Assembly (NCBI GenBank): GCA_965371225.1
Contig: CBDUXP010000007.1
Span: 28,392-92,391 of the forward strand
Reading direction: 5' to 3'
Length of the DNA: 64,000 bases
Origin: an uncultured bacterium
GTDB taxonomy: Bacteria; Abyssobacteria; SURF-5; CBDUXP01
Position 1 is the stretch's first letter; each line of letters opens with the position of its first letter. The notes under the pieces are model-generated. The model was not told where the DNA came from, ran no database searches, and saw only the letters and a list, made by a program, of their open reading frames with translations. Position numbers and translations under genes: made by a program. Below, piece after piece: positions 4,457-64,000 of this stretch.

Positions 4457-4458
4457 CG

Positions 4459-40373: not shown

Positions 40374-40499
40374 CCCGGTTGCGCGAGGCGGGGGCGTTTG
40401 TTAACATGCCACCGTTAGAGTCTATTGCCGGTCACCGACCATGGAGTTGGGCGCGGGGGACGCGCCCGGGGGTCCGGGGCGCGTCGGGAAAGGCAGCAG

Positions 40500-40943: not shown

Positions 40944-41037
40944 GCCCGGGCCGCCGGCGACCCTGGTGCCCCACCGCCGAGGGTGCGGTAGAATTAGAAT
41001 AGAATACGGCTGCTCCGGCAGCGTTTCGCTGACCCCT

Positions 41038-41514
41038 ATGGCACAGACTTGGGCTGAACACGAATCCTGCGCCCGGTGCGGCGCCTCCCTGGGCGGGGAG
41101 TTCCGCACAAATCACCTGGGGGTCCGGTTCTGCCAAACCTGCTATGAGGATAGCGTGGTCCCCCGCGCAGCGGAGCGGAGCCCGGACCCCGTCCTGGAAC
41201 AGGTGTGCAATCGCTGCCGGGGCTCCCTGATCAATGGCTACCACGCAAATTACATGGGCGTCCTCTTCTGCACCGCGTGTTTCGAGCGGACGCACACGCC
41301 GGAAGGCCGGCCACGCGCGGACTGGGCAGAACGCGAGGCGCTGAGCGTGGCCCAACAGCCCCGCGACCGGGATGAGGACGGGGACGCGCCTGCCGGCGAG
41401 GATGAAGAGGGCATCTATCTTCACGACGTCTTTTTCGTCACGACGATTCTCGCCCTGGTGATGTACGCGGTGTCGCGCTTCGGCGGCGCGCTGCTAGCCC
41501 TCGGCGGCTACTAG
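41038..41514 (+). CDS. Tandem zinc-ribbon protein with an acidic linker and a C-terminal TM anchor
   Basis: Two C-x2-C-x17-C-x2-C modules (CARCGASLGGEFRTNHLGVRFCQTCY and CNRCRGSLINGYHANYMGVLFCTACF), a Glu/Asp-rich stretch, and a C-terminal hydrophobic helix. There is a 4-nt gap to the archease gene. Confidence 0.45.
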   Translation: MAQTWAEHESCARCGASLGGEFRTNHLGVRFCQTCYEDSVVPRAAERSPDPVLEQVCNRCRGSLINGYHANYMGVLFCTACFERTHTPEGRPRADWAEREALSVAQQPRDRDEDGDAPAGEDEEGIYLHDVFFVTTILALVMYAVSRFGGALLALGGY

Positions 41515-41518
41515 CCGC

Positions 41519-41947
41519 GTGCCCGCCGCAACGTTCGAGCGGATCGACCACACGGCCGACGTCGGCTTGCGTCTCCTGGCCCCCACCGAAGCCGACCTGT
41601 TCGTCACGGCGGTCGCGGGCCTGCACGCACTCTGGGGGCTTCCCGCGCCCGAGCCGCCGGCGGGCGCGCCGACGGAGCCACTGGAAGTGCATGGGGCGGA
41701 CATCGAAAGCCTCCTGGTCGCCTGGCTGAACGAATTGATCTTTCAAGCGACGGCGGCGGGGCGAGTGGCCGCGAGCGTGCAGGAGCCCTGCCTGGCGGAC
41801 GGCCGGTTCCGGGCGGAGGTGGCCTGGCAGCCCGTACAGTGGGACACCTCGGTGGACGGGGCGGACATCAAGGCGGCCACCTACCACACCGTACACGTGA
41901 CCGAAACGGCGGAAGGCTTCACCACGACGATCATCTTCGACGTGTGA
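41519..41947 (+). CDS. Archease (RtcB activator)
   Basis: N-terminal FERIDHTADVG motif and an archease-length protein immediately upstream of rtcB. Confidence 0.8.
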   Translation: MPAATFERIDHTADVGLRLLAPTEADLFVTAVAGLHALWGLPAPEPPAGAPTEPLEVHGADIESLLVAWLNELIFQATAAGRVAASVQEPCLADGRFRAEVAWQPVQWDTSVDGADIKAATYHTVHVTETAEGFTTTIIFDV

Positions 41948-41963
41948 GCCGGCCAGGCGGGCA

Positions 41964-43496: not shown

Positions 43497-43498
43497 GC

Positions 43499-44983: not shown

Positions 44984-45507
44984 TGCCCCTGGAACGGGCG
45001 TTTTGCGGCCGGCGCCTGGAACTCCTGCAAGGGGACATCACCGAGCAAGCGACCGACGCCATCGTCAACGCGGCGAATAACCATCTCGTCCTCGGTGCGG
45101 GCGTGGCCGGGGCGATTCGGACGAAGGGCGGGCCGAGCATTCAGGAGGAGTGCACCCGTCTGGGCCCCATCCCGATAGGGGAAGCAGCCGTGACCGGGGC
45201 CGGGAACCTTGCGGCCCGCCACGTGATTCATGCGGCAAGCATGGGCGATGAACCGGTCAGCGCCAGGTCGTTGCGGGACAGCACGCACAACAGCTTGAAA
45301 CGCGCGAGGGAACTCGGGTTGACCTCTATCAGCTTTCCCGCCATCGGGACGGGGATCGGTGGCTTCTCGCTCCACGAAGCCGCGACGATCATGCTCGGCA
45401 CCGCCAAGGAGCACTTGGAAGCCGACACGACGCTGGACCTCGTCCGCTTCGTTCTGTGGAGCGAGGCCGATTACCAGGCGTTTGAGACGATCCTTAACCG
45501 GCTCTAG
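44983..45507 (+). CDS. Macro-domain protein (MacroD/YmdB-type ADP-ribose/O-acetyl-ADP-ribose hydrolase)
   Basis: Motifs VNAANNHLVLGAGVAGAI and AIGTGIGGF. The ATG overlaps the patatin stop in TGATG. Confidence 0.85.
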   Translation: MPLERAFCGRRLELLQGDITEQATDAIVNAANNHLVLGAGVAGAIRTKGGPSIQEECTRLGPIPIGEAAVTGAGNLAARHVIHAASMGDEPVSARSLRDSTHNSLKRARELGLTSISFPAIGTGIGGFSLHEAATIMLGTAKEHLEADTTLDLVRFVLWSEADYQAFETILNRL

Positions 45508-45559
45508 ACCGGTCCGGCGGCGGCGCCCGTGGCTGGCGGCGTTGGTAGTCGGAACCGCG

Positions 45560-48391
45560 ATGCCAGCCGTGGCAGCGGCCGCGCCACCCGCACCGCCCGA
45601 CCCGGTCGCGGTCCTGGTTCCAGGCGGCCCGCAAGACTTCTGGGGCTGGACCCTCGGTCCGCGTACCATGCCCGAGGGGCTGCACGCGACCGTGCGGTTC
45701 GCAGGCTGGTCCGAGACCGCCACCCGCGAAGCGTTGCTGGAGAGCATGGTGGCCGGAACCGCGGCGGATCTCGTCCTGCTGCGGCCCCAGGACGTGCCCC
45801 CCTTGGCGGACGCCGGCCTCCTGGCCGACCTGGCTGACGAACCCGCCGTGGCTCAGGTGCGCACGCACGCCGGCGCCGGAGTGGTGTCGTGCATCGCCGA
45901 CGGTGATGCCGTGTGGGGTATCGCGGCAGGGTTGACGCTGCCGCTCGTGCTCATCCGGCCGGAACACGCCACCGGCCTACCCATCCCCGACACGTGGGCG
46001 GCGTTCTTCGCTCGCCTGCCGAGCCCCGCACGGGACAACGGCGTCGCGCTGGACCCGGGCCAACTGGAACTGACCTTCGACTGGTTGCGCCGCCGCGCGC
46101 AGCTCCGGCTGGACGCGACGGGAATGGACGCGCCCGCCGCCTGGGGCGCGTGTCTGACGCTCCTGCGCCGCTTGCACTCGACGCCGAGCGCTACGCGGTT
46201 CTGGCAGAAGCGTTGGTCGCCGGCCGTGCCCACCTTTCGGCGCGGCCGCGCCGCGGTGGCCATCGCCGACACGGAGGCATTGCGGGATACGACACCCGGC
46301 ATAACCGGCACGCACGCGATGCCCCTGCCGGCCATCGGTGCGGGCGGCGACCGGTATCCCGTCGCGGTGGCCGGCGTGTGGGTGGTGCCCGCGGGGACGG
46401 ACGTGACGCGGGTTCGGCCGCTGCTCGCGTTCGTCACCAGTGCGGCATTCGCCGCGCGCCTGGCGCAGCACCACGGGTGGGCGCCCGTACGCACCGATGC
46501 CTGGGACCTGATGGGCGCGCTGCTCGAACGCATTCCCGCCTGGCAGACCGTGCAGCGGCTCTTGCAAGGAGCGGTCCGGACCGAGGCGGAAGGGCCCGGG
46601 GTAGATGCGCGACGCGTGCGCATGGCCCGAGCCGCTGGGCTCTGGCTCTCGGGCGTGCATCCCGACCCAGCCGCTGCGTGGCGGGCTGCGCAGGCCGCGG
46701 AATGGCAGGCCGCTCCGCCGCTACCCCAGCCGTTTCTGCGAATCGCGTCGGCGTCGATGAAGGCATCCACGTCGACAGAGGTGCCGAGAACCCTGGCACA
46801 AGGCGAGACGGCGCTGCTTGAACTCGCCGCCCCGCCGCCCAAGTCGCTGGCCGGCGCGGGGGAGGTCGTCGTCTACGCGCGTGTGAACGGGCGAGCAATC
46901 CCGTTGCCGGCCCAGTTGGCCTTCGTGACCGGCGAACGGGATGCTCTGCGCCCGGCCGGAGTGGGACAGACAGCCGCGCCGCCGACCGCCCGATACTTCG
47001 TCGACGTGCACGTACCGTTCGGTACACCACTAGGCCGGTACGACCTCACCCTTGCGCCGGGCGGGGACACCGGGGGATCCTCGGACGGGATGCCGATCGG
47101 ATCCGTGCGAGTGACCGCGATCCCGACCGACGAGCGAACGGTACCCGCCTTGTGCGGGTTGGGCCTGCCGGCAGGCTCTCCGTACACGGACGCGGTACGC
47201 ACCCTGCTGCTCGATCACGGTTTTACTCCTTTCCCCCTGCCGCTCGATGCGCCGCTCGTGGCCGATCCCCGGCGCGGGCCTCTCGTGTTGCGACGCTGGC
47301 ACGATCCCACGCAAGCTGAGCGTGACGCGCACGCGGCCGGGGAGGCGGGGGTGCTGGCGGACGTGCTCGAGTATTCGTACGACGAACCGACGCTCCTCCA
47401 CTTTCCGCACCTGCGACACGAAGCGGCGCGGTACCAGGCGCTGGGCGTACGGGTGCTCGCGACGCATCCGCCCGATCCGCTGTTGGCAGGGACCGCGCAG
47501 GTGTGGGGTGTGCACACGGCCCTGCGGCCGACGCACACGCCGAGCACGCCGGACGCGTGGCGCACGGTGGTCCGACGCATGGCGGATGCCCGGGCGCGGG
47601 GGGAAGACGTGTGGTGGTATACCGCGGGGGATGTCGCCCCCCTCCCCAGCCTGCAGCTCCACGCGAACCTGACGCGCCTCCGCGCCGCCTTTTTTCGGTT
47701 GCCCGCGTTGGGATTCTCGGGCGTGCTTCAGCCGGAGGCGGCGGCGTGGGGTCCCGACCCCGGCGAATTAGACCGGGGGGCGCTGGGGGTCGGCGAGGGA
47801 ATTCTGTGCTTTCCGGCACGCGATGGCTCGGCGGTGGTCCGACCCAGCGTCCGCCTGAAGGCCTTGCGCGAGGGACGGTGGACCCTCCACCTGCTCGCCC
47901 AGTTACACCGGCAGCTCGCGGCGCGGACGGCGGCACTGCCGGACGGCGCGGCGTGGACGGCATACCCGGCGGAACGGCTAGCGGCGTACGGTCGCGCGGT
48001 GGTCAGACCTGAGGCGTTAGCGCTCGGTGACGCCGTGCATCCGCTCATGCACCTCACCACGGATCCCAGGCACTTGGCGACGGTCGCGCGCGCATTGCGC
48101 CTGGAACTCGAGGGGGCATTCAGGGGACCGTGGCTGCTGGTACGCGCGGACGTGCCGGACTGGAGCGTGACGACCGCGGACCGCGTCACGCTCTCCGGCC
48201 GCGTCCCGGCCCAGGGGACGGTATCCGTCGCGGGGCGACGCGTCGTGACCACCGCGAACGGGAATTTTACCGTGACACCGATGCTGGACCTTGGCTTGAC
48301 CCTGCTCGACATCGAGGTCCGCTCGGGCGGGAAGGCGCATCGCATGACGTGGCACGTGTGGCGCGCCGCCGGCCCGTTGTCTGGCGCATAG
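45560..48391 (+). CDS. Large hypothetical protein. The N-terminal ~400 aa resemble an ABC-type extracellular solute-binding protein (family 1) without a signal peptide. The C-terminal ~550 aa are uncharacterised.
   Basis: 944 aa from the first plausible ATG after the macro-domain gene (a TTG at 45542 is also possible). The N-terminal pattern FWGW...AADLVLL...DAGLLADL...GDAVWGIA is typical of sugar-SBP folds. Confidence 0.5.
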   Translation: MPAVAAAAPPAPPDPVAVLVPGGPQDFWGWTLGPRTMPEGLHATVRFAGWSETATREALLESMVAGTAADLVLLRPQDVPPLADAGLLADLADEPAVAQVRTHAGAGVVSCIADGDAVWGIAAGLTLPLVLIRPEHATGLPIPDTWAAFFARLPSPARDNGVALDPGQLELTFDWLRRRAQLRLDATGMDAPAAWGACLTLLRRLHSTPSATRFWQKRWSPAVPTFRRGRAAVAIADTEALRDTTPGITGTHAMPLPAIGAGGDRYPVAVAGVWVVPAGTDVTRVRPLLAFVTSAAFAARLAQHHGWAPVRTDAWDLMGALLERIPAWQTVQRLLQGAVRTEAEGPGVDARRVRMARAAGLWLSGVHPDPAAAWRAAQAAEWQAAPPLPQPFLRIASASMKASTSTEVPRTLAQGETALLELAAPPPKSLAGAGEVVVYARVNGRAIPLPAQLAFVTGERDALRPAGVGQTAAPPTARYFVDVHVPFGTPLGRYDLTLAPGGDTGGSSDGMPIGSVRVTAIPTDERTVPALCGLGLPAGSPYTDAVRTLLLDHGFTPFPLPLDAPLVADPRRGPLVLRRWHDPTQAERDAHAAGEAGVLADVLEYSYDEPTLLHFPHLRHEAARYQALGVRVLATHPPDPLLAGTAQVWGVHTALRPTHTPSTPDAWRTVVRRMADARARGEDVWWYTAGDVAPLPSLQLHANLTRLRAAFFRLPALGFSGVLQPEAAAWGPDPGELDRGALGVGEGILCFPARDGSAVVRPSVRLKALREGRWTLHLLAQLHRQLAARTAALPDGAAWTAYPAERLAAYGRAVVRPEALALGDAVHPLMHLTTDPRHLATVARALRLELEGAFRGPWLLVRADVPDWSVTTADRVTLSGRVPAQGTVSVAGRRVVTTANGNFTVTPMLDLGLTLLDIEVRSGGKAHRMTWHVWRAAGPLSGA

Positions 48392-52827: not shown

Positions 52828-53601
52828 ATGCTCCGCGTCGAGCACCTCACCCAGCGGTTCGGGGGCGTCGTGGCGCTCAACGACGTGTCGTTCGAGGTGT
52901 ACCCGGGGGAGATCGCCAGCCTCATCGGCCCGAACGGTGCCGGGAAGACCTCCCTGTTCAACGTGGTAACCGGGTTGTACGAGCCCGCGGACGGTGCGGT
53001 GCGATTCGGCGTGGATGAACCTCAAGACCTCACGCATCTGTCCCCGAATGCCATTACGCGGCTCGGCATTGCGCGGACTTTTCAGAATCTGCGGTTGTTC
53101 AACAACCTCACGGTGCTCGATAACGTCATGATCGGCCGGCACTGCCGGCTGTACTCGCGCATGGTGGGCGCCGTGCTTCGGACCGCGTCCCAGCGCAAGG
53201 AGGAGGCCGAAGCCCGAGACGCGGCGCTCGCCCTGTTGGCTTACGCGGGCCTCGAGGAGCAGGCGCATGGCCTGGCCAATGGGCTGCCTTTTGGGGACGC
53301 GCGACGCCTGGAGATTGCGCGGGCGCTGGCGGCGGACCCGAAGCTGCTACTCCTGGACGAACCGGCCGCGGGCATGAATCCCATCGAGTCACAAGCGCTC
53401 ATGGAATTCGTGCGGGATATCCGCGGACGGGGCATCACTATTCTGCTCATCGAGCATGACATGCAGGTCGTGATGGGCATCAGCGACCGCGTGATCGTGT
53501 TCGACCACGGCGTCAACATCGCGGAGGGGAAGCCCGAGGAGATTCAGCGCCACCCCCAAGTCATCGAGGCGTATCTTGGGACGGGATCGGATCAAGCCTA
53601 G
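52828..53601 (+). CDS. livG: Branched-chain amino acid ABC transporter ATP-binding protein (LivG)
   Basis: Walker A GPNGAGKTS, signature LPFGDARRLEIARAL, Walker B LLLLDEPAAG. Confidence 0.85.
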   Translation: MLRVEHLTQRFGGVVALNDVSFEVYPGEIASLIGPNGAGKTSLFNVVTGLYEPADGAVRFGVDEPQDLTHLSPNAITRLGIARTFQNLRLFNNLTVLDNVMIGRHCRLYSRMVGAVLRTASQRKEEAEARDAALALLAYAGLEEQAHGLANGLPFGDARRLEIARALAADPKLLLLDEPAAGMNPIESQALMEFVRDIRGRGITILLIEHDMQVVMGISDRVIVFDHGVNIAEGKPEEIQRHPQVIEAYLGTGSDQA

Positions 53602-54314
53602 TGCTGGACGTGCGCGACCTGGTAGTGGCCTACGGGGCGATCGAGGCGCTGCATGGGGTGTCCTTCGGCGTGGAAGAAGGCGAGATCGTCACGCTCATCG
53701 GGGCCAACGGCGCGGGGAAGACTACGGCGTTGCACGCTATCTCCCGCCTGGTCAATGCGAAGGCCGGCGCCATCCACTTCGCTGGCCAGCCGATTCACGA
53801 AGAATTGCCGGGCCGGGTCGTCGCTTTGGGCATCAGCCAAGTGCCGGAAGGGCGACGATTGTTTCAGGAAATGACGGTGCTGGAGAATTTGCAGATGGGT
53901 GCGTACCTCCGCGCGGCGGGCCCGGAAGTCCGCGCCGATATCGACCTGTCGTTCTCGTACTTTCCGATCCTGCGGGAGCGCGCCGGCGCGCGGGCCGGCA
54001 CGCTCAGCGGCGGCGAGCAACAGATGCTCGCCATCGCCCGTGGCCTCATGGCGCGGCCGCGGCTCCTGCTCCTGGATGAACCCTCGCTCGGGTTGGCCCC
54101 GAAACTCGTGGAACAGATCTTCGGCATCATCCAGCGGATCAATGGGGACGGCACCACCATCCTCCTGGTGGAGCAGAATGCGCGTATGGCCCTGAGTATT
54201 GCGGACCGGGCATACGTGCTGGCGAGCGGCAACGTGCACATGACCGATACGGGGGCCGCCTTGCTGCGGAATGATGACGTGCGCCGTACGTACCTCGGCG
54301 AAACGAGCGGCTAG
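53601..54314 (+). CDS. livF: Branched-chain amino acid ABC transporter ATP-binding protein (LivF)
   Basis: Walker A GANGAGKTT, signature LSGGEQQMLAIARGL, Walker B LLLLDEPSLG. Confidence 0.85.
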   Translation: MLDVRDLVVAYGAIEALHGVSFGVEEGEIVTLIGANGAGKTTALHAISRLVNAKAGAIHFAGQPIHEELPGRVVALGISQVPEGRRLFQEMTVLENLQMGAYLRAAGPEVRADIDLSFSYFPILRERAGARAGTLSGGEQQMLAIARGLMARPRLLLLDEPSLGLAPKLVEQIFGIIQRINGDGTTILLVEQNARMALSIADRAYVLASGNVHMTDTGAALLRNDDVRRTYLGETSG

Positions 54315-54766
54315 GGCGTTTCGGACGAGGCGTCCCCCGCTGCCAGAAGGTGCAGCAGCGCGCCCTGTCCCCCCGCGAGGTCACCAAGGGCCGCATCGTT
54401 CAACGCCAGCCAGAAGAATTCGAACACCACCGGCGGGCCGCCGTCGGACCGGTGCCGTTCCACGTGGTGCCACTCCGCGGGAGGTTCGGCCCGAAGACCC
54501 ACGTGAAATACATGCCGTTCCTGTACCTCCGCCCGGACCGGTGACAGGTCGAACTCGGTTACACCAAGCAGGCGGGGGGCGGGAAGATCGGTCAGGCCCG
54601 TCTCTTCGTGGATCTCGCGCAGCACCGCCTGGGCAGGCGCCTCACCCGCCTCGACTGTCCCCGCAGGCACCTGCAAGCCCGCGTCAGGTATATCTCGCTG
54701 CCGGAATACCAGGAGCCGGCCCGCCCAGGTGATGTAAGCGAGCACCTTCGTGACGCGCGTGCTCAT
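54311..54766 (-). CDS. NUDIX hydrolase
   Basis: Nudix box G-x5-E-x7-REIHEETGL. The start was set at the internal ATG (MSTRVTKVLAY). Confidence 0.7.
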   Translation of the reverse strand: MSTRVTKVLAYITWAGRLLVFRQRDIPDAGLQVPAGTVEAGEAPAQAVLREIHEETGLTDLPAPRLLGVTEFDLSPVRAEVQERHVFHVGLRAEPPAEWHHVERHRSDGGPPVVFEFFWLALNDAALGDLAGGQGALLHLLAAGDASSETP

Positions 54767-54820
54767 GGTGCGTTCGCGGAACCGCCGGTCATCGCCCACC
54801 GGGGACGGCCCGCGCCCGAC

Positions 54821-55246
54821 TCAGGCTACCAGATGTTCGTACCCGTTCTCGTCCAACCACTCGCGAAACATCTTGTACACGGGCTTCGTGATGGGAATGA
54901 GCTTGAGAGCTTTGGCGATCTTGCCCTTCGTCTTGATCTGACCGCGGGCGATAGCGATGGGCACGTTGACCTTCCCCTGGAAATAGCGAATGGCGACGTC
55001 TGAATCCATCATCATTTCCACGTCCGGGTCCCAGTCCCGTTGCTTGTCGCCCCAGATCCAGTGCAGATGTTGGCCAGTCTCGACGGGGTCATCCTCCGCC
55101 GCGACCGCGTTCAGTATGAGTTTCATGTCTGGGAAAATGAACCGTTGGGGCACCCGCGCGCGTCGGAGCCGCGGTCCCATTTTGGCGTCGGTGCTCATCA
55201 GGTCCATCACGGCGTCCATGACCGTCCTGAATTCTTCTTTATCCAT
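54821..55246 (-). CDS. SCP2 (sterol-carrier-protein-2-like) domain protein
   Basis: The C-terminal ARGQIKTKGKIAKALKLIPI matches the SCP2 signature region. Confidence 0.6.
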   Translation of the reverse strand: MDKEEFRTVMDAVMDLMSTDAKMGPRLRRARVPQRFIFPDMKLILNAVAAEDDPVETGQHLHWIWGDKQRDWDPDVEMMMDSDVAIRYFQGKVNVPIAIARGQIKTKGKIAKALKLIPITKPVYKMFREWLDENGYEHLVA

Positions 55247-55262
55247 CGATCTCTCCCGCCTT

Positions 55263-56459
55263 CTACGGCCGGCCCCGAATGCCCTCTGCCCCCAGGAGGT
55301 GCTCGTTCATGAGGGTCAGGCCTTGAATATCATAGATGTCCTGCGCGAAATACGGAATAGGGAGTACGAACTCGGACTTGCGGCAGTAAGCGCGCAATCG
55401 CTCGACGGCCTGGCGATCGGCGTCGGCCAACTGCTGAAAGTTGTCGAACGTCTCCGCAAGCTGGGCGCCCAGCCGATCGAATGCCGCGCCTTCTGTGGCG
55501 CTGCGCCCTAGGGCGGCCAGGGCGGCCATGCCTTCCCCATCCCGGCGCCAACGGGTGTAGGCGGATTTCATGCCCCGGCGCGACAGGTAATTCTCATGCA
55601 CCTTATTGACGATGAAGCCGCCGAACGGCATCCGGTAGTCCTTCAGCTTGTCATAGAAAAAGATGGACTCCTCCAGCGTCAGGTCCTCGGGGCTCGTCAC
55701 CAAGAGGAAGACCGTCGCCTTGCTCCGGAGGATGCGGCTGACCTTCGCCGCGCGCTCTTTGAAGCCGTCGTACATACCTTCAAAACCCAGAAAGAACTCC
55801 GACACAATCTTCAACACGGTCAAGCCGGTGACTTTCTCCAGGGCGCTCAGGACCGTTCGCGTGCCGCGCTGCATCACCCGCAGCCCCGCCCCCGCCACGC
55901 CGAAGTACGGCTTGAGAAACCATTGCAGGATCGAGCCGTCCAGAAACTCCGTCATGCGTGTTGGAGCATCCAGAAAATCCAGAGCGTGGCGCGTGGGCGG
56001 TGTGTCCAGCACGATCAAATCGTATTCCCCTTCGAGGTGCAGTTCGTACAGCTTCTCCATCGCCATGTACTCCTGCGAACCCGCCAACGCGTTTGAAATG
56101 TTCTGATACAGGAGATTGCCAAGAATACGGTCGGCGATCTCGGGCGAAGGGGCGTGCCGCCCCACCAAGTCATCGAACGTGCGCTTGGTATCCAACATCA
56201 TCGCCCACAGCGTCCCCCGCATCTCCAACCCCGCTTGGGCGCACTTGTCGCGGGGAACTTGCCGCGCCTCGTTGCCCAACTCCGACAGGCCGAGGGAGTT
56301 GGCCAAGCGCTTGGCAGGATCAATCGTCAGGACAAGGGCGTTCAGACCCTGATCCGCCGCGGCCAGCGCCAGGGACGCCGCCGTCGTGGTCTTGCCGACC
56401 CCCCCGCTGCCGCAGCACACGACAATTCGTTTCGAGTCGAGACAATCGCGCAGATTCAT
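55263..56459 (-). CDS. ArsA/GET3-family anion-transporting-type ATPase, single-domain homolog
   Basis: Deviant Walker A VVCCGSGGVGKTTTAASLA. It overlaps the upstream paralog by 4 nt. Confidence 0.8.
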   Translation of the reverse strand: MNLRDCLDSKRIVVCCGSGGVGKTTTAASLALAAADQGLNALVLTIDPAKRLANSLGLSELGNEARQVPRDKCAQAGLEMRGTLWAMMLDTKRTFDDLVGRHAPSPEIADRILGNLLYQNISNALAGSQEYMAMEKLYELHLEGEYDLIVLDTPPTRHALDFLDAPTRMTEFLDGSILQWFLKPYFGVAGAGLRVMQRGTRTVLSALEKVTGLTVLKIVSEFFLGFEGMYDGFKERAAKVSRILRSKATVFLLVTSPEDLTLEESIFFYDKLKDYRMPFGGFIVNKVHENYLSRRGMKSAYTRWRRDGEGMAALAALGRSATEGAAFDRLGAQLAETFDNFQQLADADRQAVERLRAYCRKSEFVLPIPYFAQDIYDIQGLTLMNEHLLGAEGIRGRP

Positions 56460-57439
56460 GCGAGGTCGACCGCGTCCAACCGCTCCTCAAGACTCGTGGA
56501 GACCGTGTCCACGAGGTCGAAGTCCAGGCTGCTTGAAAAGACGAAGGGAACCTCGACGGCCACGTGCCGGATCTCCCGTGTGAGTTTGGTGATGTACTTC
56601 TCGTTCAGGGCGCGCCGCCGGACTGCGGCGTCCATACAGGCGATCATGGCCTGTACGAGCGCCGCGTCCCGCGGGGGAAGCTCAGCGGTGTCCAGGCGCG
56701 CGGACAACTCCGCCAGGGTAGCCTGCTGAGCCGCGCTTAACACCTTGGGATATACCCCGTTGATGATCAGGCTAGCCAGGGGAATGCCCAATTCCCCCTC
56801 GATCGCGTGATACATTTCGATGGCTTCATTAGCCGGCATGTCCTCGGCCAGCGTGACCAGTAAAAACCGCGTGCGGCGCTTGTCTTTCAAGAGCGCGATG
56901 ATCTTTTCCGCTTGCTTGAAAATGGGGCCCATCTTCAGCGTCTTCTTCACCAGATACGGGACGCGGAGAAAGGAAATGCCATGGCCGGTGGCCGGGGCAT
57001 CGACGATAATGAGGTCCCACTTGGGCTTCGCCGACCGGCGCGTGCGGCGTTCCTCTTCCAGCATTCGGATTCGGCCGAGCGTCACGAGTTCCTTCAGCCC
57101 CGGGGCGGCCGCCACGAAATATCGATAGATGGGGCTCTCCACCACCTGGCGGGCCAACGCGCGCAGCGGCACCTGGGACTGAATGAATTCGTCCATCACG
57201 CGCTCGGGATGCAGATTCACTGCCCAGACGTTCTCAAATACCTGGCGCCCGTCATGCCCCACCTCCGGCGCGCCGAAGAGCTGGGAAATCCGCTCCTTGG
57301 AATCGAGTTCGACAGCCAGCACGCGTTTGCCCCGGCGAGCGGCCATGAGGGCCGTGGCCGCCACCACGGTGCTTTTCCCCACGCCGCCTTTGCCCGATAC
57401 GATCAGGAGGCGTTTATTGAGCAGACCGGTTACATTCAC
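56456..57439 (-). CDS. ArsA/GET3-family ATPase, single-domain homolog (second paralog)
   Basis: Deviant Walker A LLIVSGKGGVGKSTVVAATAL. Confidence 0.8.
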   Translation of the reverse strand: MNVTGLLNKRLLIVSGKGGVGKSTVVAATALMAARRGKRVLAVELDSKERISQLFGAPEVGHDGRQVFENVWAVNLHPERVMDEFIQSQVPLRALARQVVESPIYRYFVAAAPGLKELVTLGRIRMLEEERRTRRSAKPKWDLIIVDAPATGHGISFLRVPYLVKKTLKMGPIFKQAEKIIALLKDKRRTRFLLVTLAEDMPANEAIEMYHAIEGELGIPLASLIINGVYPKVLSAAQQATLAELSARLDTAELPPRDAALVQAMIACMDAAVRRRALNEKYITKLTREIRHVAVEVPFVFSSSLDFDLVDTVSTSLEERLDAVDLA

Positions 57440-57549
57440 GCCACGAACTCCCGCTGGACGGGCGAGCCGCTCATCCCGGCCTGTCGCCGGCTTACAGCCG
57501 CCTGCACCGTGGGCACGGGCGCTGAGAAATGAGTGAATCCGGCAATCAG

Positions 57550-59331
57550 TTACTCACGTTCAAACCAGCGCTCCCATTCGAAATCGGCCGTCGGCAATAG
57601 GTCGGCGGTACGGTGCACCAAGATCGCGCGAATTTCCGACGCCGTGGCGGCCGACAACGCTTCCGCCGCCACCGCCTGGGAATCGCTCAGGGAGATGGAC
57701 CGGATGATGCGCTTGATCTCCGGAATTTCGGCGGGGACCATGCTGAACTCGCGCAAGCCCAGGCCGAGCAGGAGCATAGTGAACCCGGGGTGGCCTGCCA
57801 GATCGCCGCAGAGACTCACGGGCCTCTGGGCCTGTTCCGCGGCGCGGAGCAGATGGTGGAGACTGCGGATGATACTGGGATGCGCGGGCACGTACAGGTG
57901 CGAGACTAGTTCGTTGATGCGGTCCACCGCGAGCGTGTACTGAATGAGGTCGTTGGTGCCCACGCTCAGAAAATCGCATTCCCGCGCGAGCAGATCGGCG
58001 GTGAAGACGGCCGAGGGAATTTCGATCATCGCGCCAACAGCCATGTGCTCGGGCAGCGTCGCGGCCTCCGCGACCAACTCCGCCCAGGTTTGATCGAACG
58101 CCTCCCGCGCCCGCCGAAAGTCCTCGAGCCCGGTGACCATGGGAAACATGACGCGCACGTCCCCATGGGCGCCCGCCCGGCAAATGGCCCGCAGCTGCGT
58201 GCGGAACAACTCAGGATGCGCGAGACTGAACCGAATCGCGCGACAGCCCATGACGGGATTCGCCTCATGGTAGTCGTACTGCCCGTCCAGCACCCGATCC
58301 GCGCCCACGTCAAGGGTGCGGATGGTGACGGGCTGCCCGGCGAACCGTTCCGCGACCCGCCGGTACGCCTGATATTGCTCCTCTTCATCGGGCAGTGTGG
58401 GGCGATTCAAGAAGAGATATTCGGTCCGGTACAGCCCCACGCCTGTCGCGCCATGCATGTCGAGACTCACCACTTCGTCCGGCAGGTCAATATTTGCTTG
58501 AAGCTGGACTTCGATCTCGTCCGTCGTCTCCGCCCGTAAATCCTCCAACTGGTCCAGCTCGTGCTCGAACTCGATCACATGGGCCCGCCGTTCTTCCGTC
58601 GCGGCAATCATCTGCGCATCCGGATGCACGGTGACCTCACCCCGATACCCGTCCACGATCAACGTATCCCCGGGCCGGATGCGATAGAGCTGGGCCTTGG
58701 CGCCGACGACGGCGGGAATCTCGAGGGCCTTCGCCAGAATGGCCGTGTGGCTTGTCTGGCCGCCCGCCACCGTGACGAACGCCCGCACATGCTCCCGGTC
58801 CAACTGCATGGTGTCCGACGGGGTGAGGTCGTGCGCCACGACAATCACCGGCCCGTCCAACTTCTCGAGGCTCGCCGCCTCTCCAGTCGCCAATTTGCTC
58901 TGCACGCGCCGACACACGTCAGCGATATCCACAAAGCGATCCGCCAAATAGGGGTCGTCGACATGCTGAAACCGTTCGCGGAGCGTCGTCACCTCGTCAG
59001 CGAGAATGTACTCGACGTTCCGCAACTCGGACCGCACCCGTTGGGGGATGCGGCCGAAGAAGGTGGTGTCCTGCAGGAGTTGCAAATGCGACTTGAAGAT
59101 TTCCTCCACACTGGGCTCGCCGATTTCTTCCATCGCGCGCCGACTCAGGGCCTCTATGTCTTTCCGCGTCTCGAGCACAGCCAGCGTAAGGCGTTGGATC
59201 TCCGCGTCCACCTCTTCTTCCTGAATCCGCCGCGGGACGACGTAGAAATCCTCGCTGAAGTGGATGTGCGCCCGGCCCACGGCGATCCCCGGCGACGCCG
59301 GCACCCCGGTAATGACGTTCGCTTCAGGCAT
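57550..59331 (-). CDS. ptsI: Phosphoenolpyruvate-protein phosphotransferase (PTS enzyme I)
   Basis: Full-length EI. The phospho-His region is GGQTSHTAILAKALEIPAVVG, followed by the PEP-binding TIM barrel. The start was chosen just downstream of ptsH. Confidence 0.9.
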   Translation of the reverse strand: MPEANVITGVPASPGIAVGRAHIHFSEDFYVVPRRIQEEEVDAEIQRLTLAVLETRKDIEALSRRAMEEIGEPSVEEIFKSHLQLLQDTTFFGRIPQRVRSELRNVEYILADEVTTLRERFQHVDDPYLADRFVDIADVCRRVQSKLATGEAASLEKLDGPVIVVAHDLTPSDTMQLDREHVRAFVTVAGGQTSHTAILAKALEIPAVVGAKAQLYRIRPGDTLIVDGYRGEVTVHPDAQMIAATEERRAHVIEFEHELDQLEDLRAETTDEIEVQLQANIDLPDEVVSLDMHGATGVGLYRTEYLFLNRPTLPDEEEQYQAYRRVAERFAGQPVTIRTLDVGADRVLDGQYDYHEANPVMGCRAIRFSLAHPELFRTQLRAICRAGAHGDVRVMFPMVTGLEDFRRAREAFDQTWAELVAEAATLPEHMAVGAMIEIPSAVFTADLLARECDFLSVGTNDLIQYTLAVDRINELVSHLYVPAHPSIIRSLHHLLRAAEQAQRPVSLCGDLAGHPGFTMLLLGLGLREFSMVPAEIPEIKRIIRSISLSDSQAVAAEALSAATASEIRAILVHRTADLLPTADFEWERWFERE

Positions 59332-59599
59332 AGGCCTCCCCAAAGCCCGACGCGAAATACTCCACGAGGAACTGCAGGCACGCCTCCTCGTCCGGTCCGT
59401 CCAGGTGCGCGATAACTTCCGCGCCGTTTCCCGCGGCGAGCGTGAGCAAACCGATGATGCTCTTCGCGTTCACCCGCTCGCCATCCTTCTCCAAATAGAC
59501 ATCACAGCGGAACTTGTTCAGTTTCTCCACCAGCTTGGCCGCCGGTCGCGCGTGCAGCCCTATCTCATTTGTTACGCGCATGGTCACAGACCGGCTCAC
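59324..59599 (-). CDS. ptsH: Phosphocarrier protein HPr
   Basis: His15 context IGLHARPAAKLV and Ser46 context NAKSIIGLLTLAAG (the HprK target). Confidence 0.8.
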   Translation of the reverse strand: MSRSVTMRVTNEIGLHARPAAKLVEKLNKFRCDVYLEKDGERVNAKSIIGLLTLAAGNGAEVIAHLDGPDEEACLQFLVEYFASGFGEAYA

Positions 59600-60480
59600 G
59601 TAGCTTCCGCCCGCAAAAGGTCTCGATGCTGCACGTGAACCCGCCCGACCGGCGCCGCCCGGCCAAGGGCCTCTGCCAGGGCGACCCCGAGGGCGACCGA
59701 CCGGTGCCGGCCTCCCGTACAGCCGACCCCGATCGTCAGGTAGCTCTTGCCCTCACGCGAGTAGGCCGGTAGTGCAAACGCGAGCAAGCCCACCATGCGG
59801 TCGAGGAATTCCGCGGTGGGCTCCGCCGTGAGGACGTAGTCGCGCACGGGCGCGTCCAATCCGGTCAGGGGCCGCAACGCTGGATCGTAGTGCGGATTCG
59901 GGAGGAATCGCGCATCGAAGAGCAAGTCCACTTCAGCGGGCACCCCGTACTTATACCCGAAAGAGACCACCTGCACCTGCATCCGCACGCGCTCGGACGG
60001 GGCCGCGTATCGTTCCCGCAACACATCCCGAAGCTGGTGGACGGTCAGCCGCGAGGTATCGATCACCGCAGCCGCCTGCCGGCGCAGGACCGTCAGTTTC
60101 TCCCGCTCGGCTTCGATGGCACCCCGCAGGTCATCCGCGGCCGCCGCCATGGGATGCCGGCGCCGGGATTCGCTATAGCGTTGGACGAGAGTGTCCGTCG
60201 CTGCCTCCAGGAACAACACTTCATACCCGAGCCCGCGGCTCGTGAGCGCTTGGAGGTGCAGGGTGACATTCTCAAAGAACTCGCGCTCGCGAATATCGAT
60301 GACGAGCGCCACCCGCCCCAACGTCGGCCCTTCCGTGGTGCATAGCTCGGAGAAGGGCGGCAACAAAGCGGCCGGCATATTATCGATGCAGAAGTAGCCC
60401 AGGTCTTCCAGCACGTTCGCGGCGGCACTGCGGCCGGCGCCGGACAGGCCCGTGATGACGACGATATGCTGGGCGTCCAC
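59596..60480 (-). CDS. rapZ: RNase adapter protein RapZ (YhbJ family P-loop NTPase)
   Basis: Walker A VVITGLSGAGRS and RapZ family similarity. There is an ATGA overlap with ptsH. Confidence 0.85.
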   Translation of the reverse strand: MDAQHIVVITGLSGAGRSAAANVLEDLGYFCIDNMPAALLPPFSELCTTEGPTLGRVALVIDIREREFFENVTLHLQALTSRGLGYEVLFLEAATDTLVQRYSESRRRHPMAAAADDLRGAIEAEREKLTVLRRQAAAVIDTSRLTVHQLRDVLRERYAAPSERVRMQVQVVSFGYKYGVPAEVDLLFDARFLPNPHYDPALRPLTGLDAPVRDYVLTAEPTAEFLDRMVGLLAFALPAYSREGKSYLTIGVGCTGGRHRSVALGVALAEALGRAAPVGRVHVQHRDLLRAEAT

Positions 60481-60482: not shown

Positions 60483-61433
60483 TCAGGCGGAGCCGGTGTT
60501 CTGCGCCCGCAAGGCTTCCTGTAACTGTTCGTCAAGCTGGCGCGCGGTGTGGATGCCGAAGTCCTTCAGCCGCTGGTTCAAGGCTGCCACCTCGATAATG
60601 ATGGCAATGTTGCGGCCGGGGCGCACCGGGATCGTCAATTTCGGCAGGCGCAGCTCCAGCAAGATGAAGGAGTCTTCCTCGATCCCGAGCCGGTCGTACT
60701 CCTTCGAGACATCCCAGTCTTCCAATTCGATCACGAGGCGGACGCGCTTGGTGTCGCGCACGGCGCCCACGCCAAAGATATTCCGCACATCGACGATGCC
60801 GAGCCCGCGCACCTCCATGTGGTGCTTCACTAGCGCCAGGCCTGCCCCATAGAGGTAGCGGTCCGCGCGGCGCGTAATCGCCACAGCGTCGTCGGCCACC
60901 AGCCGATGCCCGCGTTCCACCAGTTCCAGTGCCGCTTCGCTCTTGCCCACGCCCGCGTGCCCGAGAATCAGGACGCCCACCCCATGGACATCCACCAAGG
61001 TGCCGTGCAGCGTCGTCTGCGGGGAGAAGCGCTCATCGAGGAACACGATCGCCTTGCTCACGACTTTCGTCGTGGTGAGCAGGGAGCGCAGCACCGGCAC
61101 TCGCGCCGCCTCGGCGGCTTCGAGAAACACGGGGGGCGGCATGAGGCCGCGGCTGATAATGAAGCAGGGAATATCGAACTCGAACATGCGCGTTACGCGT
61201 TCCTGCAGCGTGTCGGGCGGCAACTGGAGCATGTAGTTGATCTCGGTGAGCCCCATGACCTGCGCCCGATCAAACGCGAAATAGTCCAAGTACCCCGCGA
61301 GCGCGAGACCGGGCCGATTCACATCGGGAATGGACAGGGTGCGGTCGAGGCCTGCCTCACCAGCGATGACGTGCAGCCGCAACCCAGTCTTCTCTTCAGC
61401 GAGAAATTCGGCCACCGGAAGGGACGGGCGCAT
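60483..61433 (-). CDS. hprK: HPr kinase/phosphorylase
   Basis: P-loop ILGHAGVGKSEAALEL and the C-terminal HprK signature. Confidence 0.85.
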   Translation of the reverse strand: MRPSLPVAEFLAEEKTGLRLHVIAGEAGLDRTLSIPDVNRPGLALAGYLDYFAFDRAQVMGLTEINYMLQLPPDTLQERVTRMFEFDIPCFIISRGLMPPPVFLEAAEAARVPVLRSLLTTTKVVSKAIVFLDERFSPQTTLHGTLVDVHGVGVLILGHAGVGKSEAALELVERGHRLVADDAVAITRRADRYLYGAGLALVKHHMEVRGLGIVDVRNIFGVGAVRDTKRVRLVIELEDWDVSKEYDRLGIEEDSFILLELRLPKLTIPVRPGRNIAIIIEVAALNQRLKDFGIHTARQLDEQLQEALRAQNTGSA

Positions 61434-61456: not shown

Positions 61457-62056
61457 CTACGACCGGGTAATCAACCCGAGCTGACCGTCGGGACCCCGGT
61501 AGAGGACGTCAACGCTATTGCTCTCGTCGTTGATGAAGGCGAAGAACCGGTGTCCGTTGGCGAGCAGGGCCTCGATGGCAAGGGTCAGCGGCATCGGCCC
61601 GGCCGGCGCGCGGGTCGGCAAATCCGCCGCCACCACCGCCCCTTCGGCCTCTGCGCCGGGGTCGATATCCCCCTCAGCCCACTCGTCCTCGGCCTCATTC
61701 CCGTCCCATTCTTGTTCGGCCACGGCCGCCGCGTGCAGGTCGCGCTCCGCATGGTCCGGGCCGGTTTTCTTGCGCCGCGTCACCCGGTCCTTGTGCTTGC
61801 GGACTTGCCGCTCCAGCCGGTGCACCGCCCGGTCCACCGCGGCGTACATGTCCGGATCCCGCTCCCGCACGTGCAACGTCACGTGATTCCCCGTGACCGT
61901 GATGTCAGTCACATGGTCGTCCCGTTCGAGAAACAGAATGACGTGCGCGTCGAGTAGATTATGGAAGAAATGCTCCAGCTTGGCGAGGCGCCGCGCGACG
62001 TGGTCCCGCAGGGGGCGCGTCACATCAATGTGGCGCCCAGTCACTCGGACTTGCAT
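61457..62056 (-). CDS. hpf: Ribosome hibernation promoting factor, long form (HPF/RaiA)
   Basis: N-terminal sigma54-modulation/S30EA domain (MQVRVTGRHIDVT) plus a C-terminal dimerisation domain. Confidence 0.85.
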   Translation of the reverse strand: MQVRVTGRHIDVTRPLRDHVARRLAKLEHFFHNLLDAHVILFLERDDHVTDITVTGNHVTLHVRERDPDMYAAVDRAVHRLERQVRKHKDRVTRRKKTGPDHAERDLHAAAVAEQEWDGNEAEDEWAEGDIDPGAEAEGAVVAADLPTRAPAGPMPLTLAIEALLANGHRFFAFINDESNSVDVLYRGPDGQLGLITRS

Positions 62057-62217
62057 TCACCACCCTCCTCTCGGCAACGGCTCCTTGGGCGCGGTCGGGG
62101 CGAGCTGCCGGCGCGGGCCACGAGTGTACTCATGCAGGGGGCGGCAGCCGAATGAGGCCCCTGCCGCGGACCAGTATCATACCCAGGACCTACGTAAGCG
62201 TCAATTTGGACAGGAGG

Positions 62218-62997
62218 TTACGTGTCCTTCCCCGCAACGTCGGCATCGGGCACGTACCGAAACTCTTCCCCCAAATAGACTTGCTTGGCCACCGGATGAT
62301 CGACCAGTTCCCGAGATGATCCGGACACCACGACCCGCCCCTCGTGGATGAGGTAGGCGCGGTCCACCACGTCCAGCGTTTCCCGCACGCTGTGGTCCGT
62401 AATCAGGATCCCCAGCCCCCGCGTGCGCAGATCCTTCACGAGGGTCTGCAGCCCGAACACGGCCTTCGGGTCCACGCCGGAAAACGGCTCGTCGAGCAAG
62501 AGAAACCGCGGCTCCAAAACCAGGGCGCGCCCGATTTCGACCCGGCGGCGCTCGCCCCCCGACAGCGCGTACGCGCGTTGGTCCGCGAGACCGTCGATCC
62601 CCATACTCTCCAGCATGCGCGTCACCCGGTCGCGCTGTTCCGCCACCGGAATGGGGAGCATCTCCGCGACGGCCTGCAGGTTTTCCCGCACCGTCATCCG
62701 GCGGAAGATGGACGCTTCCTGGGGGAGATAGCCCACCCCGCACCGCGCCCGTTGGTACATGGGCAGCCGCGTCAGCTCCTCGTTGTCCAGGAGCACACGC
62801 CCGGCATCGGGCCGGGTGAGGCCCACCACCATATTAAACGTCGTCGTCTTACCGGCCCCATTGGGGCCCAGCAGCCCCACGATTTCGCCAGCGGCCACGG
62901 CAATGTCCACGTCATTCACGACGCGCCGGCCCTTGTACGCCTTGACCAGGTGCTCCGCGGACAGCGTGCCGGTCAGCGCGGCGCCGTCACTCGCCAT
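62218..62997 (-). CDS. lptB: LPS export ABC transporter ATP-binding protein LptB
   Basis: Walker A GPNGAGKTT, signature LSGGERRRVEIGRAL, and LptB-length. Confidence 0.9.
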   Translation of the reverse strand: MASDGAALTGTLSAEHLVKAYKGRRVVNDVDIAVAAGEIVGLLGPNGAGKTTTFNMVVGLTRPDAGRVLLDNEELTRLPMYQRARCGVGYLPQEASIFRRMTVRENLQAVAEMLPIPVAEQRDRVTRMLESMGIDGLADQRAYALSGGERRRVEIGRALVLEPRFLLLDEPFSGVDPKAVFGLQTLVKDLRTRGLGILITDHSVRETLDVVDRAYLIHEGRVVVSGSSRELVDHPVAKQVYLGEEFRYVPDADVAGKDT

Positions 62998-63532
62998 CGC
63001 TGCTCGTGTCGAGTTGCTTCGGGAAAATCACGCCCCGGACGTTCCCCTCCGCGGACACGCGATTGGTTTCGAGATACACCCGAATCCGATCCGCCGTGAG
63101 TTGCCCCCGGTCATCCTCCACATAGTTGTCCTGCAGCAGGTCCACCGTCCCCTGGCGGCCGTCGTAGACCGCCAACTCGCTCTTCGCGGTTAACCCTTCC
63201 CGCATCATGACCACCCGGCCCTCCGCGACAATCCGATCGGCCTGTCGCGACCCCTCCACCGTAAAGATGGTGACCTTGGTGGCTTTCAGACGCGCCTCGC
63301 GCTGGTCCCGACCGACCACGATGATGTCCACGTGCCCCTGGAACACTTGCGGCTCGTCCGGGGTCTGGGTCACCGCCATGGAGTCGGCGTGGATCAGGCG
63401 GACCTCCTTGATCTCGCTGGGCACCACCGAGCCCCCCGCGGCCGTTTGCGGGCTCGCGGGCGGGACGCCCGCCGCGAGCACGCCGCCCCACGCGCCCAGC
63501 AGGACGAACGCCCTAGCCGGCCAGTTCCGCAT
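62987..63532 (-). CDS. lptA: LPS transport periplasmic protein LptA (OstA-N-like)
   Basis: Signal peptide plus OstA-like beta-jellyroll repeats. It sits between lptB and the lptC-like gene. Confidence 0.7.
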   Translation of the reverse strand: MRNWPARAFVLLGAWGGVLAAGVPPASPQTAAGGSVVPSEIKEVRLIHADSMAVTQTPDEPQVFQGHVDIIVVGRDQREARLKATKVTIFTVEGSRQADRIVAEGRVVMMREGLTAKSELAVYDGRQGTVDLLQDNYVEDDRGQLTADRIRVYLETNRVSAEGNVRGVIFPKQLDTSSDGE

Positions 63533-64000
63533 CGTGCAACACGCCGTGTACCTGGAAGAGCTTCACATCTTGCAGCCCAGGTGAGGTTTCCATTCCCGTT
63601 GCCGTGATGTGCGACTCGCCCCGGCGCAACGTCACGCGTCCGTCGGTTCGCAATTTTCGATTCGCCCCGCTCCAATACAGGATAGTGCTGTCCAGGGTAT
63701 CCCCGTTCGGCGCCGCAATATGCACGTGGCCCCGCAGGGTGGCATCCTGCGACGCCGGGTCGTAATCCGCCTCGTCCGCGGTCACGATCGTCGGCCTCGG
63801 GTCTTCCCCGAAGAACTGCAGGGTCACCTCTACCAGGTGGGCGGGTTCCTGCGGCCGCTGCTGCACCCGCGCCGCATGCAACTCCCACTCAGTGACCAGG
63901 CCCCGGGTCTGGCGGAACGTGACGTCTTCCAACTCCTGTTCCAGGCTCAGGCCCCCCAAGGCGCCCGAGGCCGAGAACGCGTCAGGCTCGGGAGCGGTGG
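63513..64000 (-). CDS. lptC: LptC-like protein, probably truncated at the window edge (the N-terminus lies beyond 64000)
   Basis: LptC-like beta-jellyroll sequence (TADEADYDPASQDATLRGHVHI). No N-terminal TM helix is present inside the window, so the gene probably continues beyond the end. Confidence 0.5.
   Translation of the reverse strand, partial: TAPEPDAFSASGALGGLSLEQELEDVTFRQTRGLVTEWELHAARVQQRPQEPAHLVEVTLQFFGEDPRPTIVTADEADYDPASQDATLRGHVHIAAPNGDTLDSTILYWSGANRKLRTDGRVTLRRGESHITATGMETSPGLQDVKLFQVHGVLHDAELAG

Follow-up and report, generated by a model that had tools for sequence, protein, structure and literature searches.

We analysed a stretch of 64,000 nucleotides (nt) from an uncultured bacterium of the Abyssobacteria (GenBank assembly GCA_965371225.1, contig CBDUXP010000007.1, positions 28,392 to 92,391), referred to here as the window. 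Two adjacent genes in the window encode single-domain ATPases of the Get3/ArsA fold that are distant homologues of BagA and BagB of Mycobacterium tuberculosis (Rv3679/Rv3680, PDB 6BS3), with no arsenic role. BagA and BagB have already been named, crystallised and in part studied genetically, and the window pair adds members from an uncultured diderm bacterium. The pair lies between the end of a phosphotransferase system (PTS) operon and a gene for a protein with a predicted SCP2 fold (SCP2L). Judged from their sequences, the two proteins probably serve, on balance, as subunits A and B of a heterodimeric ATPase of the BagA/BagB type, which would act on a hydrophobic client that may be a lipid, beside SCP2L. 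The genes concerned are as follows.

56456–57439, minus strand: bagA-like gene, encoding a 327-residue single-domain ATPase of the Get3/ArsA fold; GTG start, with a GGGAG ribosome-binding site
55263–56459, minus strand: bagB-like gene, encoding a 398-residue single-domain ATPase of the Get3/ArsA fold; ATG start
54821–55246, minus strand: SCP2L gene, encoding a 141-residue protein with a predicted SCP2 fold; starts 16 nt past the bagB stop codon

Placement of the ATPase pair in the BagA/BagB family

Both ATPases match Pfam ArsA_ATPase (PF02374), at 97 and 100 bits (cut-off 24.3). Among the NCBIfam models, the top match of the BagA-like protein was BagA (NF053622, 147 bits), and that of the BagB-like protein was BagB (NF053621, 340 bits, with an end-to-end alignment). 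The generic GET3/ArsA/TRC40 model scored ∼95 bits and the ArsA equivalog models 51–66 bits. The mycobacterial subunits were also the best PDB matches in phmmer searches, with 6bs3_B (Rv3680) first for the BagB-like protein (E = 1.5e-68, 235 bits; next match 66 bits) and 6bs3_A (Rv3679) first for the BagA-like protein (E = 3.5e-28, 102 bits), followed by ArsA at 75 bits. An AlphaFold2 (AF2) model of the BagA-like protein, with a predicted local distance difference test score (pLDDT) of 93.2, had 6bs3_A as its top Foldseek match, with template modelling (TM) scores of 0.81 by query (TMq) and 0.80 by target (TMt) over 331 columns. The same model gave TM scores of ∼0.66–0.69 to Get3 structures, including tail-anchor-bound ones, and 0.59 to ArsA.

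To place the proteins in a phylogeny, we built a tree of 20 sequences (310 columns, 200 bootstraps) with neighbour-joining as the sole method. It comprised the pairs from related loci, the Nocardia farcinica pair (verified as full-length Rv3679/Rv3680 orthologues at 450 and 530 bits), the two halves of an ArsA protein encoded by the arsRCDA-ACR3 operon of a Citrobacter plasmid, yeast Get3 (a reference sequence identical to PDB 2woj_A), a Get3d-like protein with an HSP20 domain and a ParA-like outgroup. The BagA-like protein fell in the BagA clade (91% bootstrap) and the BagB-like protein in the BagB clade (100%). The ArsA halves, Get3 and Get3d all lay outside these two clades, such that neither window ATPase groups with the N- or C-terminal half of ArsA or with Get3.

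These data bear on whether the pair could be a split ArsA, i.e. separate A1 and A2 halves that energise arsenite/antimonite efflux together with a transporter encoded elsewhere. The match of both proteins to PF02374 is compatible with such a role, as is the resemblance of their switch II motifs (DAPATGH and DTPPTRH) to the DTAPTGH of ArsA, and split, single-domain ArsA pairs are described in some Firmicutes (PMC6593721). ArsA itself (E. coli R773 and the Citrobacter plasmid reference) shares the P-loop fold, the deviant Walker A, the DTAPTGH-like switch II and PF02374 with the window proteins. However, ArsA is one fused polypeptide of two halves, whereas the window has two open reading frames (ORFs), each with its own start and stop codons, and the ArsA family models score far below the 147 and 340 bits of the BagA and BagB models. 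ArsA binds As(III)/Sb(III) through Cys113/Cys172/Cys422 (Cys 114/173/422 in the Citrobacter reference) and is encoded with arsR, arsD, arsB or ACR3, and the window has none of these. At the three cysteine positions, the BagA-like protein has F/gap/G and the BagB-like protein I/V/G. The BagA-like protein contains one cysteine in all, and across orthologues the only conserved cysteines are the CC just before the BagB P-loop. Searches of the 64 kb with ArsR, ArsC, ArsD and ACR3 (tblastn) were empty, nor were these genes present in the flanks of relatives, and Pfam scans of ∼50 window genes returned no ars family; ArsB-type transporters (PF02040) were covered through these scans of window genes only, with no query sequence.

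Arsenic resistance is therefore ruled out by the absent Cys triad, the absent ars genes and the separate clade, and we regard a split ArsA as extremely improbable. The preliminary description of this DNA had favoured a Get3-like pair over arsenic resistance and had seen no arsB, arsD or arsR nearby, and the tree, the cysteine positions and the gene searches bear out both statements. Automatic annotation gives such proteins names like 'anion-transporting ATPase', 'arsenite-transporting' and 'chromosome partitioning protein'; this placement corrects them, as they would otherwise suggest arsenic resistance. Neither window ATPase has a conserved Cys or His cluster, so a metallochaperone role is also without support.

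The likeness to M. tuberculosis BagA/BagB (PDB 6BS3–6BS5) extends from the proteins to the organisation of their genes. In both cases the subunits are encoded by adjacent, translationally coupled single-domain genes, A then B; the same P-loop asymmetry is seen (GKGGxGKS in A and GSGGVGKT in B); the B subunit is longer and carries a helical insert; and the metalloid cysteines and CXXC are missing. In the window, the TGA of bagA and the ATG of bagB are fused as ATGA (56459–56456), confirming the two separate genes with a 4-nt overlap that had been described, here of 327 and 398 codons' worth of product. The same ATGA overlap is found in Nocardia (L090) and in the related loci L001 and L095. Identity to the M. 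tuberculosis proteins is ∼28% for BagA (structure-based alignment) and, for BagB, about half of the aligned residues over the first ∼280. The hosts differ, the window being from a diderm and M. tuberculosis being an actinobacterium, and so do the surroundings: the hpf-hprK-rapZ-ptsH-ptsI operon and the SCP2 gene accompany the window pair, and neither occurs in the Nocardia locus or in 80 metagenomic BagB loci. BagA also differs in its switch regions: the window protein keeps Asp in switch I and His in switch II, where the Nocardia orthologue has Glu and Arg.

There is a marked asymmetry between the two subunits. The BagA-like protein has a GKGGVGKS P-loop and a DAPATGH switch II and is without the helical insert; the BagB-like protein has a GSGGVGKT P-loop and a DTPPTRH switch II. 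In the alignment, both subunits retain the lysine of Walker A and the aspartate of switch I. At the signature-lysine position (Get3 K26), all eight BagB sequences compared, including that of Nocardia, have Ser, while every BagA sequence has Lys, and the A versus B asymmetry of the P-loop is present in every pair examined, Nocardia included. The signature lysine of this ATPase class works in trans, across the dimer interface. As BagB is without this lysine and BagA has it, the two nucleotide sites of an A–B dimer should be non-equivalent. A further asymmetry is the BagB-like insert of ∼55–60 residues (residues ∼176–240), which is amphipathic and helical and sits where Get3 has its client-binding/TRC40 insert. 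It is well conserved among 120 homologues, in which its hydrophobic positions follow a helical pattern and 37% of its columns are conserved as hydrophobic. At the equivalent position, the AF2 model of the BagA-like protein has two short helices only.

The fold of the pair and the position of the conserved amphipathic BagB insert could indicate a true Get3 analogue, in which the heterodimer binds tail-anchored proteins by their C-terminal transmembrane segments and brings them to the inner membrane and SCP2L is unrelated or a minor accessory. The TM scores of ∼0.66–0.69 fit this, ATP-driven open–closed cycling is plausible for Get3 and the window pair alike, and tail-anchored proteins occur in bacteria (PMC3087755). 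Get3, however, is a symmetric homodimer with a CXXC-bound zinc clasp, a methionine-rich composite groove and membrane receptors, whereas the dimer that we infer for the window proteins would be asymmetric. As only one of the two subunits has the insert, they would not be expected to form a symmetric groove of the Get3 type, and the alignment has no cysteine at the Get3 CXXC positions (C285, C288) in either window ATPase. A Get1/Get2-like receptor was not seen among the neighbours, although no dedicated search was made, and none is known. The conserved neighbours are of a lipid type rather than membrane-protein biogenesis factors. A 2019 study by Hu et al. reportedly found that the mycobacterial pair differs notably from Get3 and has no function in tail anchoring. 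We thus consider a Get3 analogue unlikely.

The Get3d or alpha-crystallin-domain Get3 homologues (PMC10248533) are, like the window proteins, bacterial single-domain ATPases of the Get3 fold. They differ in having an alpha-crystallin/HSP20 domain, which the window proteins are without, and in the tree Get3d belongs to neither the BagA nor the BagB clade.

Linkage to the PTS genes and to SCP2L

The pair had been described as lying just upstream of the PTS/HprK block. In the direction of transcription the opposite is true: it lies downstream, with bagA beginning 110 nt after ptsI. The preceding features are listed below, where gene identities come from the Pfam matches of the orthologous genes of relatives.

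57440–57549, minus strand: ptsI–bagA intergenic spacer, 110 nt
57550–59343, minus strand: ptsI
59324–59599, minus strand: ptsH, encoding HPr
59596–60480, minus strand: rapZ
60483–61433, minus strand: hprK
61457–62056, minus strand: hpf

A scan of the spacer found no terminator-like or promoter-like site. Only hpf is preceded by a good promoter-like site, a sigma-70-like match at 62204–62176 in the 161-nt gap between lptB and hpf. The genes from hpf/hprK to SCP2L are on one strand and separated by short gaps, and hpf or hprK through SCP2L probably form one transcription unit, in which we infer that bagA is co-transcribed with ptsI. No regulatory RNA or tRNA was found in the region, and the ptsI–bagA spacer is without an Rfam match.

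The same arrangement is found in relatives. Two close loci (L001 and L095) have the order lptB-hpf-hprK-rapZ-ptsH-ptsI-bagA-bagB-SCP2L. A second, Hydrogenedentota-like clade, with BagB 53–58% and PtsI 45–48% identical to the window proteins, has the order hprK-rapZ-ptsH-ptsI-[alpha/beta hydrolase]-bagA-bagB-SCP2L; its metagenome-assembled genomes carry the submitters' labels, mostly Hydrogenedentota or Abyssobacteria, otherwise Poribacteria or Lindowbacteria, or none. Overall, the order hprK-rapZ-ptsH-ptsI-(hydrolase)-bagA-bagB-SCP2L was seen in all 10 loci that had enough upstream sequence. In the window clade and the Hydrogenedentota-like clade, SCP2L comes directly after bagB wherever the locus extends over this region. 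Synteny stops right after SCP2L, which is thus the 3′ end of the conserved block.

The hydrolase between ptsI and bagA is a protein of ∼280–300 residues (L003:4109–5008, L004:4159–5004, L006:4106–5008 and five other loci). It matches Palm_thioest, LCAT, Lipase_2, PGAP1 and DUF676, i.e. it is lipase/thioesterase-like. The window clade does not have it, and nowhere in the window is there a homologue.

The NCBI taxonomy has Abyssobacteria as a class of Hydrogenedentota, and the other names are submitters' labels on metagenome-assembled genomes. We therefore take the gene order to be conserved across deep divergence, and do not claim conservation across many phyla. A full-text search of the literature found no paper linking HprK or RapZ with ArsA, and none was found that brings SCP2 together with bacterial Get3 and ArsA. 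In the reviews of Get3 homologues that we searched, there is no mention of Rv3679, of Mycobacterium or of a heterodimer. Given these searches, the conserved PTS-BagAB-SCP2L arrangement appears to be undescribed so far.

The third gene of the block was already described as encoding an SCP2 protein, and this holds, even though its score against Pfam SCP2 (PF02036) is 20.0 bits, under the cut-off of 21.3. Many orthologues carry a precomputed PF02036 match. The AF2 model (pLDDT 93.6) has the five-helix, five-strand alpha/beta SCP2 fold, and among the Foldseek matches listed, all 33 at E ≤ 1e-3 are SCP2 domains. These include 4jgx, 1ikt, 6h6p and 2yhe, and cover SCP2 of Yarrowia and human, UbiJ-SCP2, the SCP2-like domain of MFE-2 and the alkylsulfatase C-terminal domain (E = 4e-6 to 5e-4, TMq 0.5–0.62). 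The 141-residue ORF, as modelled, has the SCP2 fold.

Compared with these known proteins, SCP2L has the same alpha/beta fold and a similar length of ∼140 residues, but only 10–19% identity, a Pfam score under the cut-off and an unusually high internal conservation. Between distant lineages its identity is 55–60%, with 31 invariant columns in 43 sequences, which is unusually conserved for an SCP2 domain. A search of 1.84 billion proteins gave 643 family representatives at E ≤ 1e-3, nearly all of them stand-alone proteins of ∼140 residues; the orthologues in loci with the conserved block are 141–147 residues long.

Other contexts of BagAB and SCP2L, and a proposed client of the pair

The protein database holds >8,000 BagB-like and >4,500 BagA-like clusters. 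BagAB is thus a branch of the Get3/ArsA fold that is widely distributed in bacteria, and the present locus shows it outside Actinomycetota, in diderm candidate lineages. To survey BagAB in the reverse direction, we sampled 80 metagenomic BagB loci (39–58% identity). bagA was directly upstream of bagB in 45 of the 56 informative loci. A divergent ParA/MinD-like ATPase gene paired with an FtsZ-like gene (Tubulin + FtsZ_C) stands beside bagAB in 31 of the 80 loci (L106–L177). This gene pair recurs in a large, mostly soil-derived BagAB clade and is also seen at L088:3529–5947.

Could the window proteins themselves be a ParA/MinD-like pair of positioning ATPases, acting in cell division or cargo positioning? 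The company kept by bagAB in those 31 loci would fit, the deviant Walker A is common to ParA/MinD, and one BagA orthologue is annotated as a 'chromosome partitioning protein'. Against this, the ParA/MinD family models score ∼20–32 bits on the window proteins and are confined to the P-loop, the whole-protein fold matches are to Get3 and BagA, and the ParA-like and FtsZ-like neighbours are absent from the window clade. We consider such a role very improbable.

Other BagAB neighbourhoods differ again. A Get3d-HSP20 gene follows bagB in three metagenomic loci (L102, L166 and L168), and a phasin gene is present in two metagenomic loci. At L089:1725–7555, BagAB is accompanied by a Get3d-like HSP20/alpha-crystallin ATPase, whose gene directly follows bagB, by two phasins (PHB_acc_N), a methyltransferase and two PlsC/DAGAT-like acyltransferases; this context hints at a link to storage lipid or polyhydroxyalkanoate granules. 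In Lujinxingia vulgaris, a cultured species, BagAB is next to a cis-prenyltransferase and is without SCP2L or PTS genes. The genetically tractable M. smegmatis is another cultured species that has BagAB without SCP2L. A cis-prenyltransferase (UppS-like, PF01255) is also divergent beside a distant SCP2L member, so that it occurs once near each (L092:1887–3255 and L097:4812–8149); with one case each, chance is possible.

The SCP2L profile was used to scan genomes, with matches in at least 540, and the best 80 were mostly from Thermoleophilia (Actinomycetota), where the orthologues are 53–61% identical to the window SCP2L. The genes most often found beside them on the same strand encode an NAD-epimerase and a PlsC/DAGAT-like acyltransferase (about one-third of the loci), and a MerR-adenylate cyclase, tilS and coiled-coil proteins also recur. 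The typical order (L011, L016–L087) is coiled-coil, PNP (opposite strand), coiled-coil, NAD-epimerase, PlsC-type acyltransferase, SCP2L, MerR-adenylate cyclase, tilS and hpt. The chromosome OY970293.1 of a member of the Solirubrobacterales has two SCP2L copies (L053 and L078). One of the Thermoleophilia coiled-coil proteins is weakly similar to the C-terminus of an L089 phasin (pairwise E = 4e-5), with no Pfam match.

BagAB is therefore a widespread factor with lineage-specific neighbours, and the context with PTS genes and SCP2L is specific to two clades, that of the window and the Hydrogenedentota-like one. The linkage to SCP2 that the preliminary description had left unexplained is thus conserved within those two clades, while as a general rule it is ruled out by the other BagB loci, the Thermoleophilia loci and the distant SCP2L members detailed below.

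By analogy with Get3, ATP binding would close the A–B dimer and shape a hydrophobic site to which BagB would contribute the larger part. The nucleotide sites would be asymmetric, with BagA alone giving the trans-lysine that reaches the site of BagB, and a hydrophobic client would be handled through the BagB insert. Because of the SCP2-fold and lipase-like neighbours, a lipid or acyl chain seems at least as likely a client as a transmembrane segment. SCP2L could then be a donor, acceptor or adaptor for the BagAB client, and the module may be expressed together with the regulatory PTS (HprK/HPr/EI/RapZ) and so respond to carbon and envelope-precursor status.

The three- to four-gene context at the end of the PTS operon (lipase-like hydrolase, BagA, BagB and SCP2L) points to a lipid or hydrophobic small-molecule client. 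A lipid theme speaks in favour of this reading, made up of the lipase-like hydrolase, the Thermoleophilia acyltransferase and the BagAB locus with phasins and acyltransferases. In addition, Whitaker et al. are said to have found, in 2020, that BagA pulled down enzymes of type II fatty acid synthesis (FASII) and mycolate-modifying enzymes. The published mycobacterial phenotypes, in which bagAB is tied to the toxicity of glycerol and nitric oxide (work cited in PMC10597346), also count towards this reading. In its fullest form, the proposal is that BagA, BagB and SCP2L, with the hydrolase in most relatives, may constitute a PTS-tied, ATP-driven machine that extracts, carries or delivers a lipid or acyl-chain client and not a tail-anchored protein; we put this forward tentatively and judge it, so specified, to be improbable. 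If true, such a lipid machine would give the BagAB family its first molecular function, and it would show that an ATPase of the Get3 fold can act on lipids.

Several observations weigh against a lipid-handling BagAB–SCP2L system. Both window ATPases miss the NCBIfam equivalog cut-offs (147 versus 400 bits for BagA and 340 versus 521 for BagB), and functional equivalence with the mycobacterial pair is therefore not guaranteed; as these models are built from mycobacterial sequences, the missed cut-offs argue against strict equivalence and not against family membership. The evidence joining SCP2L to BagAB is synteny, and the lineages may share the arrangement by descent. SCP2L was downstream of BagB in none of 54 other BagB loci of the metagenomic sample, there was no BagAB within 8 kb in ∼70 Thermoleophilia SCP2L loci, and more distant SCP2L relatives are likewise unlinked to BagAB. 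No fusion of SCP2L to BagB or to another ArsA-like ATPase was found among the 643 family representatives; the few long matches to the SCP2L profile, considered as Rosetta-stone candidates, proved to be unrelated or chimeric gene calls (AAA+ECH, MerR). Finally, BagAB neighbourhoods vary by lineage (ParA-like + FtsZ-like; Get3d-HSP20 + phasins; prenyltransferase), and such varied neighbours are more in keeping with a housekeeping factor of general use than with a machine dedicated to lipids.

This variation between lineages is also what would be expected of a general stress chaperone or holdase, or of a detoxification helper (against electrophiles, nitric oxide or carbon overflow), for which the PTS link would reflect carbon-flux stress and SCP2L would be a mere neighbour. 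The pair sits after ptsI, and the PTS senses phosphoenolpyruvate and carbon status. In M. tuberculosis, work cited in PMC10597346 implicates bagAB in protecting the cell from the toxicity of glycerol/methylglyoxal and of nitric oxide, and Get3 itself shows holdase activity (PMC6593721). However, a stress role leaves unexplained both the strict retention and high conservation of SCP2L after bagB and the lipase-like hydrolase in front of bagA, and the redox-switch cysteines of Get3 have no counterpart in the window proteins. We take this possibility seriously while thinking it rather unlikely. A BagA/BagB-type ATPase with a hydrophobic client remains the reading that we favour, and the PTS-BagAB-SCP2L arrangement is a new, testable lead on BagAB function, drawn from synteny in restricted uncultured lineages.

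Neighbouring genes and other features of the window

Two further genes meet at the downstream end of the cluster.

54311–54799, minus strand: NUDIX hydrolase gene, encoding 162 residues from a GTG start; alternative ATG start at 54766
53601–54314, plus strand: livF-like ATP-binding cassette (ABC) ATPase gene, convergent with the NUDIX gene

The assignment of a NUDIX hydrolase to the cluster was correct, with a Pfam NUDIX score of 58.6 bits (cut-off 21.1, E = 8e-16) and a complete Nudix box, GTVEAGEAPAQAVLREIHEETGL, that fits GX5EX7REUXEEXGU. A liv-type ABC transporter operon on the plus strand converges on the SCP2L/NUDIX end of the cluster, and the stop codon of the NUDIX gene overlaps that of the livF-like gene by 4 nt (54311–54314). 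In L001 and L095, in which BagB is 74% and 72% identical to that of the window, there is no NUDIX gene and SCP2L is directly followed by the convergent liv operon. The NUDIX gene occupies a site that is a gap of ∼30 nt in these two loci, which fits a recent insertion. Its absence from two close relatives rules it out as part of the module and marks it as a lineage-specific passenger; it is a recent local addition.

The cluster was also considered as an anti-phage defence system and rejected, as PADLOC gave generic P-loop or Nudix matches only.

Further upstream of hpf, lptB-lptA-lptC lie on the same minus strand, giving an envelope/regulatory cluster (61457–63959, minus strand) of lptC-lptA-lptB-hpf-hprK-rapZ-ptsH-ptsI. 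This differs from the proteobacterial lptB-rpoN-hpf-ptsN-rapZ-npr arrangement, as the window cluster has no rpoN between lptB and hpf and no ptsN/EIIA gene. The window HPr retains the His-15-type (GLHARPA) and Ser-46-type (NAKSIIGL) motifs.

Elsewhere in the window, four ORFs of 450, 374, 467 and 503 residues (1606–2958, 3200–4324, 11682–13085 and 36074–37585) are without a Pfam match and have coding-type G+C content at third codon positions. A protein of 1010 residues (45359–48391) has a weak solute-binding-protein domain only. The region 40425–44983 encodes a response regulator, a 182-residue unknown ORF, archease and RtcB (an RNA ligase repair pair), and then a patatin-like phospholipase. 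The second patatin-like gene of the window is at 4393–5943, and a GDSL lipase gene is at 32329–33603.

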